A DNA stretch of 64,000 nucleotides from an uncultured Chloroflexia bacterium (lineage in GTDB: Bacteria; Chloroflexota; Chloroflexia; Chloroflexales; Herpetosiphonaceae), in assembly GCA_963767035.1 (NCBI GenBank), contig CAVYBW010000001.1, forward strand, positions 2,502,547 to 2,566,546, in the 5' to 3' direction. This document shows, one piece after another, positions 20,825 through 27,483 of this stretch. The first letter of the stretch is position 1, and the number at the start of each line of letters is the position of its first letter. The notes below the pieces were generated by a model. The model worked only from the letters and a program-made list of their open reading frames with translations. It did not search any database and was not told the DNA's origin. Both the position numbers and the translations under genes were made by a program.

Positions 20825-22498
20825 ATGACTGAAAGCGTCGCAATTGCAGAGCAGCCTAGTCAAACGGCTGCAATCACCATCCCACGTTCGCCTTTAAGTC
20901 GGTTGTTATTGCCAATTGCCTTGGTGGTGTTGGCGCTTGGCGCAGGGCTAGCAGCGTGGTGTGGGCTTAACTTTGGTTCTCAAACGATGCTGATTGGCGC
21001 AATTGCTGGTGGCGTTGGTGCCCTAGCAGCCTTGGTCGGCTTGATTGCTGGCCTCCGTCGGCGCTTGCCATTGAGCGGTTGGGCCTTGGTGATCGGCACC
21101 TTGAGCATCGCCCTCGGTGCAACTATGGTCTTCCCCGACCAACGCGAATTGGCGATCATCAGCGCAGCACTGCCGGTGTTGTGTGCCGCCTTGACTTTAC
21201 GCCCTTTGCACACTGTTATTGTTACGGTTGTTAGTTTAGCCAGTTTATGGGCAGCTGCCTATTTTGCTGCCGCCGAACCAAGCCAAAACCAATTAATTCA
21301 ATGGGGCTTGCTAAGTGCCTTTGTCTTGGTGATTAGCATTTTTGGCTTGGTTTGTAGCGCAGCGTTACAGACCTTTGATCGCCAACAAACTGTAGGCCAT
21401 GAATCAACCACCCAACTCAACAAGCAGCTGGGCGAAGAACAAGAGCGGGTTGAACGCGCTGCTCAATTGCTGGTGCAAGAGCGCGATCGGCTGGCGGCGG
21501 TGCTTGGTGCTGCTAGCGATGGCGTGGTGTTGGCCGATAGCAATGGTGTAATTGTGCAAGCCAATGCTGCTGCCCGCCAATTATTGAATGAGACGTTTGG
21601 CGGCACCCTCGAAGGCCAAGCGCTCAACCAATGGAGCCAAGAAAACACTGGTCGGCTGCGCGTGATCAGCAACGAACGCGAAGGCGAACGCCAACGAGTG
21701 GTGTTTGAGCAACAACAAGGCACCCGTAAACCAGTCATTGGCCTGAATCAAGTGCCAATTCGCAGCAGCGCTGGCAGCGTTTTGGGCTATGTTGGGGTGT
21801 TCCACGATAAAACCAGCGAATTGGAAGTTGAGGAAATGCGCTCGCAATTGCTCGATTTCTTGGTGCAAGATATGCATGATCCGCTCAACTCGGTGTTGGC
21901 GGCGCAAGATACTTTGCTGGCAGGCGAACTTGGCGATGGCAATGAGCGCGTCTTATCAACTGCTCGACGCACCACCTCACGCTTGGTTGAGCTAACCAAC
22001 ACCTTGATGGAAATGAGCCGCTTGCATGGCGACACCAATAGCCTGCACCGCTTGGCTAACCCATTGCGACCCTTGATCGAAGGCAGCATTGCCCAATCCA
22101 CGCCGCAAGCCCAGCAACGAGCAATTAACTTGGTGTTGGAGTATGGCGCTGATAGTGGTGCGCTTGCCTTCGATGCCGATCGGATGCGGCGGGTGATGAG
22201 CCACCTATTGGATAATGCCTTGCGCCGCAGCCCAGCCTATAGCACGGTGCGGGTACAAGTGAGCAACACTGGCGGCAATGCTCAAGTGCGGATTGCCGAC
22301 CAAGGTCCAAGTATTCCAGTGGAACTCGCAGGTCGAATTTTTGACCGTTTTAGCAAACAGGTTGGTGAGCAACGCATCGGCGGGGTTGGCTTGGCCTATT
22401 GCAAACAAGTGATCGAGGCCCATGGTGGCCGAATTTGGGTTGATAGCACCCCTGGCAAAGGCAGTACCTTTATCTTTAGCTTGCCCTCAGCAGCATAA
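20825..22498 (+). CDS. membrane sensor histidine kinase (multi-TM N-terminus, PAS, HisKA, HATPase_c)
   Basis: 4-5 TM helices; PAS '[21 protein letters not shown]'; HATPase G-boxes '[31 protein letters not shown]'. Confidence 0.8.
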
Positions 22499-22512
22499 CG
22501 AGGAGTAGTTCC

Positions 22513-23487
22513 ATGGCAAAAATAGGCCGCAACGATCCCTGCCCATGTGGCAGTGGCAAGAAATACAAACAATGTCATGAAGCAACTGATCGTGCGCAAG
22601 AAGACCAGTTGCGCTTATTACGCCGTGCTCAAGATCGGCTGTTTCCCAAATTAATCGAGGCGACCCAAAGCCCAGAATTAGCGCCCACCACGCCAGCATT
22701 ATTTGAGCAATATTGGGGTGGGCGCTACACCGCCGCCGATATGAACGACCTCGATGAGCAAGAAGATCGTGGCTCGGAACGCTTTTTGACCTGGATGGCT
22801 TTCGATGCCCAAAGTGGCGACGATGGCTCAACGCTCGTCGAACGTATCGCTGCCAATCCACCGGCTGAGCTTGAGCTTGACGCGCATGAACTTGATTTGC
22901 TGCCAACATGGGCTGGCATTCGGCTGCGGCCTTACCTGATTGTGGAAATTATCAAAGGTAAAGGGGCCTTGATTCAAGAGGTTTTGACCAAAGAAACCTT
23001 TACTTTGCGCGACCATGCCGCCGCCAAGCGTTTGGAAGAAAACGAATTGATTTTCGCCCATCTTGTGCCAGTTGGCGATGAATATTACATTGCTGGCGCT
23101 GCCGCTCAAACCACACCTGACACCGTGGAAAAATTGGCCGAATTTTTGGCTGTTAGCTTAGAAGATTGGCAATTGCGCAACCCCGATGCCGATTTGAACC
23201 AGTTTGTGCGCGAAAATAGTTATCTGTTCAATCATTTTATCTCGGTGTTGCCACGCGAAGAAAAAGAACCATCGAAGTTTGACGATTTGATGTTGCGTGG
23301 CCGGGCAGCCTTGTTGATGACCAAACAAACGTTAGGTTTGGGCAATGACGATGATGACGACGATGATGACGACGATGATGAATTTGACGATGATGTTGAC
23401 GACGACAGCGACGATGATGCTGAAGTTGACGATGACGATGATCAAACTGAAGCATTAGCCGATTCGAGCGCAGCGCCAACCAACTAA
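22513..23487 (+). CDS. SEC-C motif (zinc-binding) domain protein with an extreme poly-Asp C-terminal tail
   Basis: N-terminal '[18 protein letters not shown]' SEC-C metal-binding motif. The C-terminus '[35 protein letters not shown]' is the direct translation of gat/gac runs at 23341-23445. RBS 'aggag'. Confidence 0.65.
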
Positions 23488-23592
23488 GCAAGCGGCCACG
23501 TTTAATCAGGGGTAGGAATGAGCCTAGGCCACATTCCGCCCCTGATTGTTGATTAAACCTTTGACTTTGCTCCAGCGTTCAGCTACCATGCA

Positions 23593-25017
23593 ATGGATAG
23601 AGAGTTGGCTCAGGAATTGAGGAATATGTCTGAACAATCACCACTCAGCGAGCGTGAAATTGAGGTTTTGAAGCAACTAGCGCTTGGTGCCAGTAATAAC
23701 GAAATTGCCAATACGCTTGTCATCAGCCCCAACACGGTTAAAGTGCATATCCGCAATATCTACGCGAAGCTTGGGGTGTTATCGCGAGCCGAGGCAACCC
23801 TCGAAGCTGTACGCCGTGGCTTAATTGAAGTTGCTATCAATCCAATTGCAACGCCTGAAGCGGAAATCGTGCAGCCTGAGATCGAGCCAGTTGTTAGCCC
23901 AGTTAAACTTGAGTCAATTGAGCTAAACCCGCTCCCAGACCCAATTAATCTCCAACCTGCAATCACTCCAACCCCTGATCCGATTACCCCAGTCATAACC
24001 CAACCAACCAATCAGATTACGATTCCGCGTGCGTATGCCTTGGCAATTGTGGGCGTGCTGTTTGGGCTAATCGTGGCGGTGTTTGCGATTGGCTGGTTTG
24101 TGGTAAGCGGCAATAATTCCGCAACCAACGAACCTGTCACGACCATGATTGTGAGCAATGTTTGGCAGCCGTTGACTGCATTGCCCCAACCAACCTATCA
24201 ACATGCCGGAGTTTTCGTGGCCGATAGCTTGATTGTGATTGGTGGCAATACTGATACTGGCGTGGTGGCGCATACCCGCCAGTTAAATCTTGCAACTGGC
24301 GCATGGCGCGATCTAGCTGCCAAACCAACCGCTGTGGCCGCCAGCGGAGCAGTGCAGATTGCTGGCCAAATTTATGTTGCTGGGGGCCGCGATAAAAATG
24401 GCGCTGCTAGTGCGACCTTCGAGATTTTTGATTTGGCACAAAATCGTTGGCAAACTGGCCCAGCCATGCCAGCACCTCGGGCCAATGCCATGGTTGCGGC
24501 GATTGATGGCAAAGTCTATGTCTTTGGGGGCGAAGCCGAGAGCGTAATTGCCGATACCAGCTTCATGTATAGCCCCGATACCAAAAGTTGGAGCCAAGGC
24601 GCGAGCCTGCCCTTGCCCTTGCGCGATGCGGCAATAGCCCAAAGTGGCAGCGATATTGTGCTAACTGGCGGCCAAACAACGACTGGCACAAACCTCGGCA
24701 CATGGCGCTTACAAACGGGTACATGGCAAAAGCTGGCCGACCTGCCAGGCCCACGAATTGACGCTGGCGCAGTCTATATTACCAATCAAGTCTATTTGGT
24801 TGGCGGGGCGGAGGGCGATCAACCGATTTTGGTGTTGCAAAACGGCATCTGGAATGCCACTGATTTGCGCACTGGACATGCCATCAGCGAACACCTCGTG
24901 CTATCAAATGCTCGTGATATCTATAGCATTGGTGGGTGGAATGGCACGAATGCGCTCGCTGAAACCCGTAGTTGGACACCAATTACCAATATTTTCTTGC
25001 CGAGTGTTGGCAAGTAG
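23593..25017 (+). CDS. one-component transmembrane regulator: LuxR-type HTH, Pro-rich linker, TM helix, extracytoplasmic Kelch-repeat beta-propeller
   Basis: 'LSEREIEVLKQLALGASNNEIANTLVISPNTVKVHIRNIYAKLGV' is LuxR/FixJ. TM helix 'YALAIVGVLFGLIVAVFAIGWFVV'. Repeated '...GG.....G.......L..G.W' Kelch-like blades ('IYVAGGRDKNG', 'VYVFGGEAES', 'VYLVGGAEG'). The true start may be the ATG at 23626. Confidence 0.65.
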   Translation: MDRELAQELRNMSEQSPLSEREIEVLKQLALGASNNEIANTLVISPNTVKVHIRNIYAKLGVLSRAEATLEAVRRGLIEVAINPIATPEAEIVQPEIEPVVSPVKLESIELNPLPDPINLQPAITPTPDPITPVITQPTNQITIPRAYALAIVGVLFGLIVAVFAIGWFVVSGNNSATNEPVTTMIVSNVWQPLTALPQPTYQHAGVFVADSLIVIGGNTDTGVVAHTRQLNLATGAWRDLAAKPTAVAASGAVQIAGQIYVAGGRDKNGAASATFEIFDLAQNRWQTGPAMPAPRANAMVAAIDGKVYVFGGEAESVIADTSFMYSPDTKSWSQGASLPLPLRDAAIAQSGSDIVLTGGQTTTGTNLGTWRLQTGTWQKLADLPGPRIDAGAVYITNQVYLVGGAEGDQPILVLQNGIWNATDLRTGHAISEHLVLSNARDIYSIGGWNGTNALAETRSWTPITNIFLPSVGK

Positions 25018-25752
25018 CTACATTCCAAAGCTCAAACGGGCAGCCAAAATATTGGGCAAGCCATGTTCAAGCATCAAGGTTTGGGTGCGCCGAATATTGT
25101 AAGTTGTGCGATGGAAGGTGACCGTTTGTTGTTCATCGTCGTAAATTGCCCAACCGGAACGTGCATCGCCATCGCGTGGTTGGCCAACGCCACCAGCATT
25201 GATGATATAGCGCTTGTCGGGTTGCAACTTAAGCACTAATTGATCGCTTGGAATCGTGGCAGTGCAATGATCGCCAACGAAATCGGCAGTGAAGATCACT
25301 GGCTGATGGGTATGGCCAACAAAGCAAATAGGTGTGCTAAAATGATCAAACGAATAACTTGCACCCACCGTATCAAGTAAATATTCCCAAACTGGGTCGC
25401 GTGGGCTGCCATGAGCTAAAGTAACGGTATCGTTAACCTGCTGCATGGGGCTAAGACTCAGCAAAAATTCGCGATGCTCTTCGGTTAATTGCGAGCCATT
25501 CCACTCGTTGGCAATCCGAGCATCACGATTAAAATTGCTGAGGGAAATCGAGCCAAGGCAGCCAAGGTCGTGATTGCCGACCAACATCGCTTGCTGGCGT
25601 TCACGCATGAGCGCAACACATTCATTTGGTTGAGGCCCGTAGCCAACCGTATCACCCAAACACCAAACCGAATCGACCTCGCCTGCTGCTCCAAGAACAG
25701 CTTCTAGTGCGGCTAAGTTAGCATGTATATCAGCAAGAACCAGAACCCGCAT
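25018..25752 (-). CDS. calcineurin-like metallophosphoesterase
   Basis: 'MRVLVLADIHAN', 'WCLGDTVGYGP', 'GNHD', 'VGHTH' motifs. Confidence 0.8.
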   Translation of the reverse strand: MRVLVLADIHANLAALEAVLGAAGEVDSVWCLGDTVGYGPQPNECVALMRERQQAMLVGNHDLGCLGSISLSNFNRDARIANEWNGSQLTEEHREFLLSLSPMQQVNDTVTLAHGSPRDPVWEYLLDTVGASYSFDHFSTPICFVGHTHQPVIFTADFVGDHCTATIPSDQLVLKLQPDKRYIINAGGVGQPRDGDARSGWAIYDDEQQTVTFHRTTYNIRRTQTLMLEHGLPNILAARLSFGM

Positions 25753-25849
25753 GTGTTACCTTTCTGCAATCAAGTGCTGTTTCTGTGGCAAGGGTTGGTA
25801 GAGTATAATGGCAGTCAGAAGCCTTTGTTGAGCTTGAACGAGGAACGTC

Positions 25850-27145
25850 GTGGAACCAGTGCATCACTGCCCATATGTGGGCCTTAAACAAAATCGTGCG
25901 ATTCGTTTTGCGAGTCCTACGCCGGAGCACCGCTGCTACATCACTGGTGAGGCCCACGATATTCCAGTGCCCCAGGCCTCGTTTTGTCTGAGCAGCAACC
26001 ATGTGCGTTGCCCATTATATTCAGGTGAGGATCTACCGGTTGCTCAGGTCGTTAGTACGCCTACGCCAGTTGCGGTTGGTGGTTGGCGTGGGTGGCTGGC
26101 GGGGTTATCAACCCGTGATCGCCGGATTTATGCCACCTTGGTGGGCTTACTAGGCTTAATTATTGTGGCCTATGCAATTAGCGGCGTTGTGTTATTTAGC
26201 AACCCCGACTCTACGACCACACCTAGTGCTACCACACTCGTGCTCCAACCAACCAACAATAGCCCAACATTAACGGTTTCGCCATCGCCAAATGCCTTTG
26301 CCACAGCAGCGGTTCGTCAAACTCAAACAGCCGAAGCTATTGCGCTAACCACTACTGCCACTCCCTCGGTCTCTGCTACGCCATCGGCTTCTGCAACCAC
26401 ACAGGTGATTCTTGCATCGCCTACTTTTGTTATTGTACCGCCAACTGACGATGTGATTGTTGCTTCTGCTACTCCTAGCATTCCGTTTGCCACCGATCCA
26501 CCAACATTTGAGCCAATTGCAACAACCACAGTGCCAACGATTGAGCCAACTGTTGAATCAACGATCGCGCCAACGATTGAACCAACAATCGAACCGACCA
26601 TTGAACCAACTGCCGAACCAACCGCCGAGCCAACCAATGAGCCAATCCCAGAACCAACTGCCCAGCCAACTGAGGAAACCGGTAGCCGTGAGGTGAATCA
26701 ACTGACGCTCTTCTTTAGTGATAGCACTGGCCAAGTGTTAGTGCCAGTTTCACGCCAGATTGGAGCGACCCGTCAGCCACGTACCGCCGCAATCCAACAG
26801 TTGATTTATGGGGCACGCAGCGATTTGCGCAGTTTGCTGCCCAGCGATACCCAATTGCTTGGGTTGTGGCTCCAGAATGGCATTGCTACGGCTAATTTTA
26901 ACCGTATCCCGACGTTTGGCAATTCAAGCTTTGAAGATTTGGGCTTGCGTTCGATTGTCTTGGCGCTGACTGAACAATCAGACATCACCCAAGTCCAGAT
27001 CCAAGTTCAAGGCCAAAATTTGGGTGGTTTGCGCTATCGGCCAAACGTCAACCCCGATAATCCGCAGGGTTTAATGGTCAGTTTAACACAACTTCGTTCT
27101 TGCCGTTGTATTTCCAACAAAGCACTGGCCGCTGGGTGCGGGTGA
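25850..27145 (+). CDS. membrane protein, part 1: Cys/His-rich cytoplasmic N-domain, TM helix, Pro/Thr/Glu-rich linker, first GerMN domain (the frame breaks near 27060-27100)
   Basis: 'CPYVG...HRCYITG...FCLSSNHVRCPLY' has 4 Cys. TM 'IYATLVGLLGLIIVAYAISGVVLF'. 'PTIEPT' repeats. GerMN-like 'LTLFFSDSTGQVLVPVSRQIG'. The tail 'LTQLRSCRCISNKALAAGCG' looks out of frame. Confidence 0.6.
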   Translation: MEPVHHCPYVGLKQNRAIRFASPTPEHRCYITGEAHDIPVPQASFCLSSNHVRCPLYSGEDLPVAQVVSTPTPVAVGGWRGWLAGLSTRDRRIYATLVGLLGLIIVAYAISGVVLFSNPDSTTTPSATTLVLQPTNNSPTLTVSPSPNAFATAAVRQTQTAEAIALTTTATPSVSATPSASATTQVILASPTFVIVPPTDDVIVASATPSIPFATDPPTFEPIATTTVPTIEPTVESTIAPTIEPTIEPTIEPTAEPTAEPTNEPIPEPTAQPTEETGSREVNQLTLFFSDSTGQVLVPVSRQIGATRQPRTAAIQQLIYGARSDLRSLLPSDTQLLGLWLQNGIATANFNRIPTFGNSSFEDLGLRSIVLALTEQSDITQVQIQVQGQNLGGLRYRPNVNPDNPQGLMVSLTQLRSCRCISNKALAAGCG

Positions 27146-27483
27146 TGCGACTGGTGCCAAGCACCAAAACCGAGGCCCGCGCCACTGTCGATGAGCTGAT
27201 TCGCGGCGCTGGCCGCTATAGTAATCTGGTTAATAATGCCATTCCCAGCAGCAGCCAAGTACGACGCTTGGTCGTTGTTGATGGCGTAGCACAGCTAGAC
27301 CTCAGCGCCGAATTTAGCCAAACCAGCAATCCCCACGCAGCCGTCGATGCCTTGGTGCTGGCATTAACGTCATTCAGCAGCGTCCAACAGGTGTTGATCA
27401 CGGTCGAAGGTCAGCCACTCAGCACTCTTTGGGGCGCATCATTTAGCAATCCCTTCTTGCGCCCACAACTCAACCCCGAATAG
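27061..27483 (+). CDS. part 2 of the same protein in another frame: second GerMN domain
   Basis: The frame is open from 27061 ('SAGFNGQFNTTSFLPLYFQQSTGRWVRV...VVVDGVAQLDLSAEFSQ...VQQVLITVEGQPL'), a canonical GerMN. There is no independent RBS or ATG. Confidence 0.55.
   Translation, partial: SAGFNGQFNTTSFLPLYFQQSTGRWVRVMRLVPSTKTEARATVDELIRGAGRYSNLVNNAIPSSSQVRRLVVVDGVAQLDLSAEFSQTSNPHAAVDALVLALTSFSSVQQVLITVEGQPLSTLWGASFSNPFLRPQLNPE

Follow-up and report, generated by a model that had tools for sequence, protein, structure and literature searches.

How a transcription regulator reaches DNA from the membrane is an active question, which has been studied almost entirely with ToxR- and CadC-type proteins of Vibrio and E. 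coli. The same question is raised by a gene of an uncultured Chloroflexia bacterium of the family Herpetosiphonaceae (contig CAVYBW010000001.1), which is located on the forward strand of the 64,000 nucleotides (nt) analysed here; this whole stretch of DNA is referred to as the window. In a preliminary description, made from the sequence alone, the gene product had been regarded as a transmembrane (TM) one-component regulator, in which a cytoplasmic helix-turn-helix (HTH) of the LuxR type is coupled through a single TM helix to an extracytoplasmic Kelch β-propeller. No transmembrane signalling device is simpler than a membrane-integrated one-component regulator. According to our analysis, and with a probability of roughly 55%, the protein is such a regulator, passing the membrane once with its N-terminus inside and its C-terminus outside and acting on transcription while it is still tethered. 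Positions of amino acids (aa) refer throughout to the open reading frame (ORF) of 474 codons.

The N-terminal domain belongs to the GerE/LuxR family, as had been proposed. In the profile search, Pfam GerE (PF00196) matched aa 17-70 (E 1e-19; 70.3 bits in comparison to a cutoff of 23.5) and covered the profile positions 2-55 of 57. In an AlphaFold2 (AF2) model, which was built on a 94-sequence alignment of the family and reached a mean predicted local distance difference test score (pLDDT) of 87.4, the helices of this domain are found at residues 20-30, 35-42, 46-60 and 65-74 (pLDDT ~96). The nearest relatives with a solved structure are the DNA-binding domains of LiaR (4wt0, E 1e-10), VraR, ChrA, VpsT, GerE (1fse) and NarL (1je8). 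Within the 94 aligned sequences, T48, V49 and H52 of the recognition helix are invariant, and K50, V51, R54 and N55 are conserved in at least 90%. The HTH is also conserved far above the rest of the protein, with 64-73% identical amino acids among the homologues in comparison to about 30% overall. A recognition helix that hardly varies implies a conserved DNA target, and together with the high conservation of the whole domain it indicates that recognition of a conserved DNA motif is the selected function.

The C-terminal part is a Kelch domain (Pfam matches over about aa 195-470; PF24681 with E 4e-34, Kelch_1 with E 2e-31 and 107.5 bits in comparison to a cutoff of 20.1), and the two domains, which NCBIfam confirmed as well, were found in every one of the 94 aligned sequences of the family. 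A Kelch propeller is a closed ring of repeats of about 47 aa, with a GG doublet and a conserved Y and W in the motif. Six GG doublets that are invariant or nearly so (217/218, 264/265, 312/313, 359/360, 404/405 and 447/448) and six conserved tryptophan residues (191, 238, 286, 333, 378 and 420) indicate six blades, and the propeller that had been read from the sequence was recovered in the AF2 model (Table 1). The profile search against the PDB yielded the designed protein SAKe6 and Keap1 with E values from 1e-95 to 1e-114, and a Foldseek search yielded NS1-BP, KLHL17, KLHL2 and Keap1 (TM-score 0.83-0.88, normalised to the target). The fold is therefore the canonical six-bladed Kelch fold of the BTB-Kelch proteins (KLHL/Keap1/NS1-BP), which is also that of NanM/YjhT; the protein encoded in the window differs from the former in that it lacks BTB and BACK domains and combines its propeller with a TM anchor and a transcription factor.

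Between these two domains, the single TM helix placed by the preliminary description after a proline-rich spacer was recovered by three approaches: by hydropathy, as a helix modelled with high confidence by AF2 (aa 146-172), and by its position throughout the family. The Kyte-Doolittle maximum over 19 residues is 2.81 and lies at about aa 146-172, the only segment above 1.6; these 27 residues are free of charges and flanked by disordered regions on either side. One hydrophobic segment between HTH and Kelch occurs in essentially every homologue that carries GerE, with its position and not its sequence conserved. The region in front of it is rich in proline (~19% in aa 80-156), and the length of the tether varies widely, the TM helix of the homologues starting anywhere from residue 86 to 186. 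Equivalent P/T/A-rich stretches follow the TM helix in the homologues.

The orientation of the protein can be predicted from two observations. In 109 proteins, the 15 residues flanking the TM helix contain on average 2.31 lysine and arginine residues on the N-terminal side in comparison to 1.30 on the C-terminal side; the N-terminal flank is the richer one in 73 proteins and the C-terminal flank in 18 (Wilcoxon p 1e-9). The positive-inside rule states that the positively charged flank of a TM helix faces the cytoplasm, and this bias of the family hence places the HTH in the cytoplasm. Furthermore, among the six closest relatives consisting of Kelch only, three have lipoprotein signal peptides with a lipobox cysteine and one has a Tat/Sec-like signal, which suggests that this Kelch subfamily works outside the cytoplasm. 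The extracytoplasmic location that the propeller had been given thus agrees with the predicted topology, and in vivo the N-terminus is most likely inside and the propeller outside the membrane.

Table 1. Features of the regulator gene, its product and its upstream region (positions in the window; residues in the numbering of the 474-codon ORF).
Feature	Positions	Strand	Residues	Remarks
GC-rich hairpin	23503..23548	+		after the stop codon of the SEC-C gene; probable intrinsic terminator of that gene
Sigma-70-type promoter	23561..23589	+		TTGACT 23561-23566, spacer of 17 nt, TACCAT 23584-23589; consensus scan
Shine-Dalgarno-like stretch	23612..23624	+		purine-rich, AGGAATTGAGGAA; directly 5' of the probable start; invariant in five species
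Probable coding sequence	23626..25017	+		463 aa plus stop; start 33 nt downstream of the ORF start
GerE/LuxR (NarL/FixJ-type) four-helix HTH	23641..23826	+	17-78	predicted cytoplasmic
Proline-rich disordered tether	23830..24027	+	80-145	pLDDT 52-59
Single TM helix	24028..24108	+	146-172	R145 just before; Kyte-Doolittle and AF2 helix
Low-complexity stalk	24109..24162	+	173-190	predicted extracytoplasmic; pLDDT ~61-63, no secondary structure
Six-bladed Kelch β-propeller	24163..24987	+	191-465	pLDDT ~98; putative extracytoplasmic sensor

The family is restricted neither to the genus nor to the class of the window. In a large protein collection, 287 homologues were found at E ≤ 1e-5, nearly all of which are 430-510 aa long and carry GerE and Kelch. 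When one genome per species was scanned, at least 577 related stretches were obtained, some of which possibly comprise the HTH only; the analysis of loci covered the best 80. These are all full-length, all from Chloroflexota and from 80 different genomes, hence one copy each, and they include Herpetosiphon, Chloroflexus, Roseiflexus, Oscillochloris, Ca. Ribeiella, Anaerolinea, Longilinea, Bellilinea, Ornatilinea, Thermanaerothrix and Ardenticatenales. An expansion of the family, which had been considered, was not seen: tblastn with the HTH and Kelch halves found in the window only the gene itself and no paralogue, and no genome occurs twice among the best 80 loci. In a neighbour-joining tree of 77 orthologues, calculated without bootstrap, the lineages of Herpetosiphonaceae, Chloroflexales and Anaerolineae group largely by taxonomy. 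Since the tree follows taxonomy, vertical inheritance of the GerE-Kelch regulator is suggested, a view that is held loosely because bootstrap values are missing. One orthologue (L060, DASWTQ010000087.1), from a metagenome-assembled genome (MAG) labelled Herpetosiphonaceae, clusters with MAGs of Chloroflexaceae; a mislabelled MAG, a transfer or an artefact of the tree are possible causes.

The genes beside the regulator are shared only by close relatives. As had been stated for the window, the gene is located between a SEC-C/poly-Asp protein upstream (22513-23487) and a metallophosphoesterase, which is encoded convergently (25018-25752). The order InhA-MAM, PAS kinase, SEC-C, regulator, metallophosphoesterase, Germane and Tex is kept within Herpetosiphon only; at four more distant loci the adjacent genes are altogether unrelated to these, so that guilt by association gives no clue to the function. 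The five loci examined have no co-component, protease, sigma factor or target operon in common beside the gene. The lack of a conserved partner gene fits a self-contained one-component system.

The ORF (23593..25017 on the forward strand, 474 codons) is present in the window exactly with the extent given before; its start codon, on the other hand, had to be revised. The true start is most probably the ATG at 23626 (M12), which results in a protein of 463 aa (23626-25017), and the 11 codons from 23593 onward are probably 5' untranslated region (UTR) rather than coding. The ATG at 23593 is located only 3 nt behind the conserved -10 box, and of the four other Herpetosiphon species in the upstream alignment three have GCG or ATA in place of this ATG; a leaderless start at this position was rejected for these two reasons. 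In the same alignment, the ATG at 23626 and the purine-rich stretch in front of it are invariant in five Herpetosiphon species. The database version of the protein (P0001, 100% identical) also comprises 463 aa, and at 47 of the 75 orthologous loci the sixth codon ahead of the LSERE motif is an ATG, which holds for M12 too. With this start, hardly any residues precede the HTH.

The gene has a promoter of its own, both hexamers of which are identical in the five Herpetosiphon species. The motif TTGAC(A/T)-17-TACCAT occurs at the same distance from the start codon (-43) in MAGs of Herpetosiphonaceae, even where the proteins are only 40-47% identical. Upstream of the promoter lies a hairpin with a folding energy of -26.9 kcal/mol (z -4.68; none of 200 shuffled sequences folded equally well), whose two arms are kept in the five species while the loop varies and which has no repeat copies elsewhere in the window; it is probably the terminator of the SEC-C gene. 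On the other side, the convergent downstream gene abuts the stop codon of the regulator. Due to the upstream hairpin, the own promoter and the convergent gene at the stop codon, the regulator gene is to be read as monocistronic. A scan with Rfam of both strands from 22400 to 26000 revealed no matches at E ≤ 0.1.

Several smaller features of the upstream regions were observed. The T-tail of the hairpin is imperfect (UUGUUGAUU), a direct repeat (TGATTGT/TGATTAA) follows the hairpin, and just 12 nt separate its 3' arm from the -35 box, so that the hairpin may have a regulatory role. In many orthologues of the Anaerolineae (L014, L019, L020, L032, L042, L049, L051, L054, L063, L069 and L076), TATAAT is located 7-10 nt before the start codon, and up to 16 nt in L049. 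A Shine-Dalgarno-like sequence was seen in only 20 of 75 orthologous loci. This suggests that the orthologues of Anaerolineae are translated from leaderless mRNAs; the orthologues of Herpetosiphon and Chloroflexus, unlike these, have a 5' UTR of about 30 nt. Orthologues of Chloroflexus (L015, L016, L018, L022, L023, L026, L030, L031, L033, L040, L059 and L075) share the 14-nt block TGTTATGATCAACG, which resembles an extended -10 box, lies at -41 to -44 relative to the start codon and is kept even where the flanks have diverged.

If the regulator acts while it is tethered, its NarL/GerE-type HTH would be exposed to the cytoplasm at the extreme N-terminus and connected by about 65 disordered, proline-rich residues to the TM helix, and a short stalk would carry the six-bladed propeller outside the membrane. 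A receiver domain is lacking, so that no phosphorylation step would be involved. Instead, an extracytoplasmic ligand, which may be a protein, a peptide or a glycan and is most likely a component of the cell envelope, would bind to the propeller, and the protein would thereby change in self-association or availability. DNA is bound by dimers of LuxR/GerE-type HTHs, as is established for GerE and NarL; a changed self-association would therefore switch target promoters on or off. The occupancy of the promoters would change while the protein remains in the membrane, like it is the case for CadC and ToxR. We tentatively infer that the signal is a feature of the cell envelope rather than a niche-specific nutrient, because a single copy of the gene is kept in phototrophs, predators and anaerobic fermenters alike.

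A number of results weigh against this reading or lend it no support. In the protein encoded in the window, the bias of lysine and arginine is only 1 vs 0, and for this reason the argument on the orientation rests on the family. The conserved positions of the propeller are those of the generic Kelch motif, and no ligand-binding residues stand out. A search for inverted repeats in 75 upstream regions revealed none that is common beyond close relatives (at a half-site of 5, at most 5 loci shared one, in comparison to 2 in shuffled sequences), and the enrichment of k-mers in 47 dereplicated upstream loci yielded only the -10 box TATAAT (24/47). As no common upstream operator was found, nothing points to autoregulation, and the upstream regions give no lead to the regulon. 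Our literature searches found no paper in which the family of GerE-Kelch regulators is discussed or characterised. Finally, the present data fit action in the tethered state and proteolytic release alike.

Regulated proteolysis is thus the main rival to tethered action. With the same topology, the protein could be a latent factor that is sequestered at the membrane; a signal at the Kelch domain would lead to cleavage of the stalk (site 1), possibly followed by an intramembrane cleavage, which frees or activates the HTH. The low-complexity stalk behind the TM helix and the disordered linker in front of it are natural sites of access for a protease. In addition, E. coli CadC, which was long seen as purely tethered, has been reported to need cleavage by DegP/DegQ just after its TM helix (PMC11484849), and TcpP is described as being likewise under proteolytic control (PMC11323476). 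However, no protease gene is a conserved neighbour in the five loci, and the alignments of the TM region contain neither a conserved cleavage motif nor a helix-breaking signature. We regard proteolytic activation as a possibility to be taken seriously and nevertheless as rather unlikely. A second explanation concerns the ectodomain, which might mainly be an enzyme, a binding module or a structural part (a NanM-like mutarotase, or a module of wall or sheath) and no sensor of the environment; the HTH would then report the export or assembly of the ectodomain or have another role in tethering. Many members of the family were named "N-acetylneuraminic acid mutarotase" by JGI, the Pfam NANM match is above the gathering score (61.6 vs 45 bits), bacterial YjhT/NanM (2uvk) is among the fold matches at rank 45 of the Foldseek search, and the closest relatives consisting of Kelch only are secreted lipoproteins. 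The NANM match, however, spans only 121 of 350 profile positions (5-125), and the identity as a NanM/YjhT mutarotase was rejected with scores far below the cutoffs of the NCBIfam models (NF010730 49.9 vs 416; TIGR03547 45.9 vs 256; TIGR03548 60.8 vs 243). The protein-binding Kelch domains of KLHL proteins and Keap1 match better in fold and sequence, and a recognition helix that is near-invariant across two classes argues that the transcriptional output is the selected function. A primarily enzymatic or structural ectodomain is hence improbable.

Two further explanations would remove either the membrane or the DNA from the picture, and both appear very improbable. The hydrophobic segment might not span the membrane, or the orientation might be inverted, so that HTH and Kelch share one compartment, for example in a soluble or peripheral cytoplasmic regulator. 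The weak positive-inside signal of the window's own protein would be in line with this, but an uncharged stretch of 27 residues with a hydropathy of 2.8, whose position and not sequence is conserved across 109 proteins, would then be hard to explain, as would the charge bias of the family. Moreover, two orthologues were each assigned one TM region by an independent pipeline, according to supplementary entries (PMC10269533), and an HTH outside the cell would find no DNA. Alternatively, the N-terminal domain might mimic region 4 of a sigma factor or bind a partner in an anti-sigma-like circuit, without autonomous binding of DNA. Sigma70_r4_2 does match weakly in 67 of the 94 members, which is expected from the shared clan; GerE is nevertheless the best HTH match by a wide margin in 94/94, and all four GerE helices are present, including a recognition helix (TVKVH) like that of NarL. 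Neither the protein nor the 94 members contain a Sigma70_r2 domain in Pfam, and a sigma gene occurs near only one of the five loci (L002), by which an extracytoplasmic function (ECF) sigma/anti-sigma system was rejected as well. Action in the tethered state remains the reading that we prefer.

The novelty of the architecture, which the preliminary description had implied, was overstated. Demey, Gumerov, Xing, Zhulin and DiRita (2023) surveyed 50,302 transmembrane transcription regulators (TTRs), 56% of which are single-pass, and found GerE to be the third most common DNA-binding domain (4,943/50,302; 9.8%; PMC10269533). The protein encoded in the window is of the same kind, as it combines GerE with one TM helix that is predicted to insert into the membrane. 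Two orthologues are already contained in the supplement of this survey, where they stand without comment: Rcas_0145 of Roseiflexus castenholzii (GerE, Kelch x4, 1 TM, 454 aa) and Chy400_2071 of Chloroflexus sp. Y-400-fl (GerE and four Kelch, 1 TM, 487 aa); orthologues from both genera are also among our best 80 loci. Among the 50,302 TTRs, Kelch_1 was recorded for 9 only, and Kelch, LuxR and GerE are all absent from the main text (PMC10269533). The preliminary description is therefore the correct annotation of an architecture that had already been catalogued, with a type of output that is common among such regulators. New in this study are the evidence for the topology from the whole family, the six-bladed model, the monocistronic organisation with a conserved promoter, the absence of a conserved partner gene and the single-copy distribution over Chloroflexia and Anaerolineae, which follows taxonomy. 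The survey reports lineage-specific expansion of TTRs and hybrid TTRs that are not conserved at the level of genus, class or phylum (PMC10269533). The single-copy distribution along taxonomic lines is the one feature that could raise the interest in the family above that of its architecture alone.

The design had also been called ToxR-like, which is appropriate as an analogy and does not apply as a statement on family membership. ToxR-like receptors have an N-terminal cytoplasmic DNA-binding domain, one TM helix and a C-terminal periplasmic sensor, and they are defined by a winged-helix DNA-binding domain of the OmpR type (PMC5430869). The protein encoded in the window shares with ToxR, TcpP, CadC, PsaE and VtrA the order of the domains, the disordered linker, the single TM helix and the lack of phosphotransfer, its orientation being deduced from charge statistics and exported relatives. 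However, no match to Trans_reg_C was found and a four-helix GerE/LuxR HTH is present instead; because its DNA-binding domain is LuxR-type and not OmpR-type, the protein does not belong to the ToxR family. Its putative sensor is a Kelch propeller, no co-component of the ToxS, TcpH, VtrC or LysP type is encoded nearby, and its lineage is that of the monoderm filamentous Chloroflexota, whereas ToxR-like receptors are known from Gammaproteobacteria. Among these, CadC is a membrane-tethered activator with a disordered linker that requires dimerisation (PMC5430869); its TM helix comprises residues 160-183 (PMC11484849) in comparison to 146-172 in the protein encoded in the window.

The HTH fold is shared with the effector domains of the NarL/FixJ group (LiaR, VraR, NarL, GerE and VpsT; E 1e-10 to 7e-7), and its TVKVH is like that of NarL. 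In the proteins of this group the HTH is usually located at the C-terminus, whereas here it is N-terminal and tethered to the membrane, and there is neither a receiver nor a ligand-binding domain. The protein is not a response regulator, since Pfam Response_reg did not match and the NCBIfam NarL model scored 40.9 vs 250; the NCBIfam response-regulator models align only via their C-terminal HTH portions and far below the cutoff. It is likewise no LuxR of quorum sensing, as an autoinducer-binding domain is absent and models of the SdiA and PA1136 type match the HTH only. An extracytoplasmic propeller and a DNA-binding output in one polypeptide are also found in the hybrid two-component systems of Bacteroidota with Reg_prop and Y_Y_Y domains, the sensors of which bind glycans. 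These regulators, which are likened here by architecture only, mostly contain kinase and receiver modules and have outputs of the AraC or OmpR type. Y_Y_Y is found in 7.7% of the TTRs (PMC10269533). According to a supplementary entry of the same survey, BACINT_00711 of Bacteroides intestinalis combines Kelch_6 with an OmpR-type Trans_reg_C (1 TM, 796 aa; PMC10269533), which indicates that TTRs with a Kelch sensor arose in another architecture, too. In BACINT_00711 as in the Reg_prop/Y_Y_Y systems, the sensor is N-terminal and the DNA-binding domain C-terminal, the reverse of the order in the protein encoded in the window.

The GerE-Kelch family provides an example of LuxR output and Kelch input in a deep-branching monoderm phylum. 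As no partner gene is conserved and the recognition helix is unusually conserved, a single experiment of DNA affinity purification sequencing (DAP-seq) could define a regulon that is valid across two classes. A more far-reaching interpretation, which we consider speculative and unlikely, is that the regulator is an ancient, vertically inherited, single-copy sensor of the envelope state or of cell contact in the filamentous Chloroflexota (Chloroflexia and Anaerolineae). Its propeller would then read the cell wall, the sheath or a neighbouring cell, and the HTH would govern a core regulon that is conserved, for instance one for the maintenance of envelope or filament. If this were true, Kelch would be a genuine class of extracytoplasmic sensors in bacteria, and the family would be the first TM transcription regulator conserved at the level of a phylum. 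If the single-copy pattern reflects a core function in envelope or filament, the family would also be a useful starting point for studying the cell biology of Chloroflexota, of which little is understood.

Some observations were made on the neighbouring genes. The SEC-C protein (22513-23487) has an N-terminal SEC-C zinc motif and ends in an extended tail rich in Asp and Glu; its gene is the upstream neighbour throughout Herpetosiphon, and the length of the acidic tail differs by species. Further upstream (20825-22498), a PAS-HisKA-HATPase histidine kinase with several TM helices is encoded, which is an orphan, as no response-regulator gene is adjacent; its synteny with the regulator gene does not extend beyond the genus. 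Downstream, a Germane (GerM-like) two-domain gene (25850-27483), which is a single ORF of 544 aa in H. llansteffanensis, is split in the window: tblastn showed aa 1-408 in one frame and aa 407-544 in another, with the change near 27067-27073, so that it is either a frameshifted pseudogene or the result of a sequencing error. In Longilinea arvoryzae and Bellilinea, the gene of a lytic transglycosylase with an SLT domain was detected 1.3-2.9 kb downstream of the orthologue (L003, 8650-9345; L004, 10183-10776); this could be a remnant of the gene order common to related genera, or it could hint at a connection with the cell wall.

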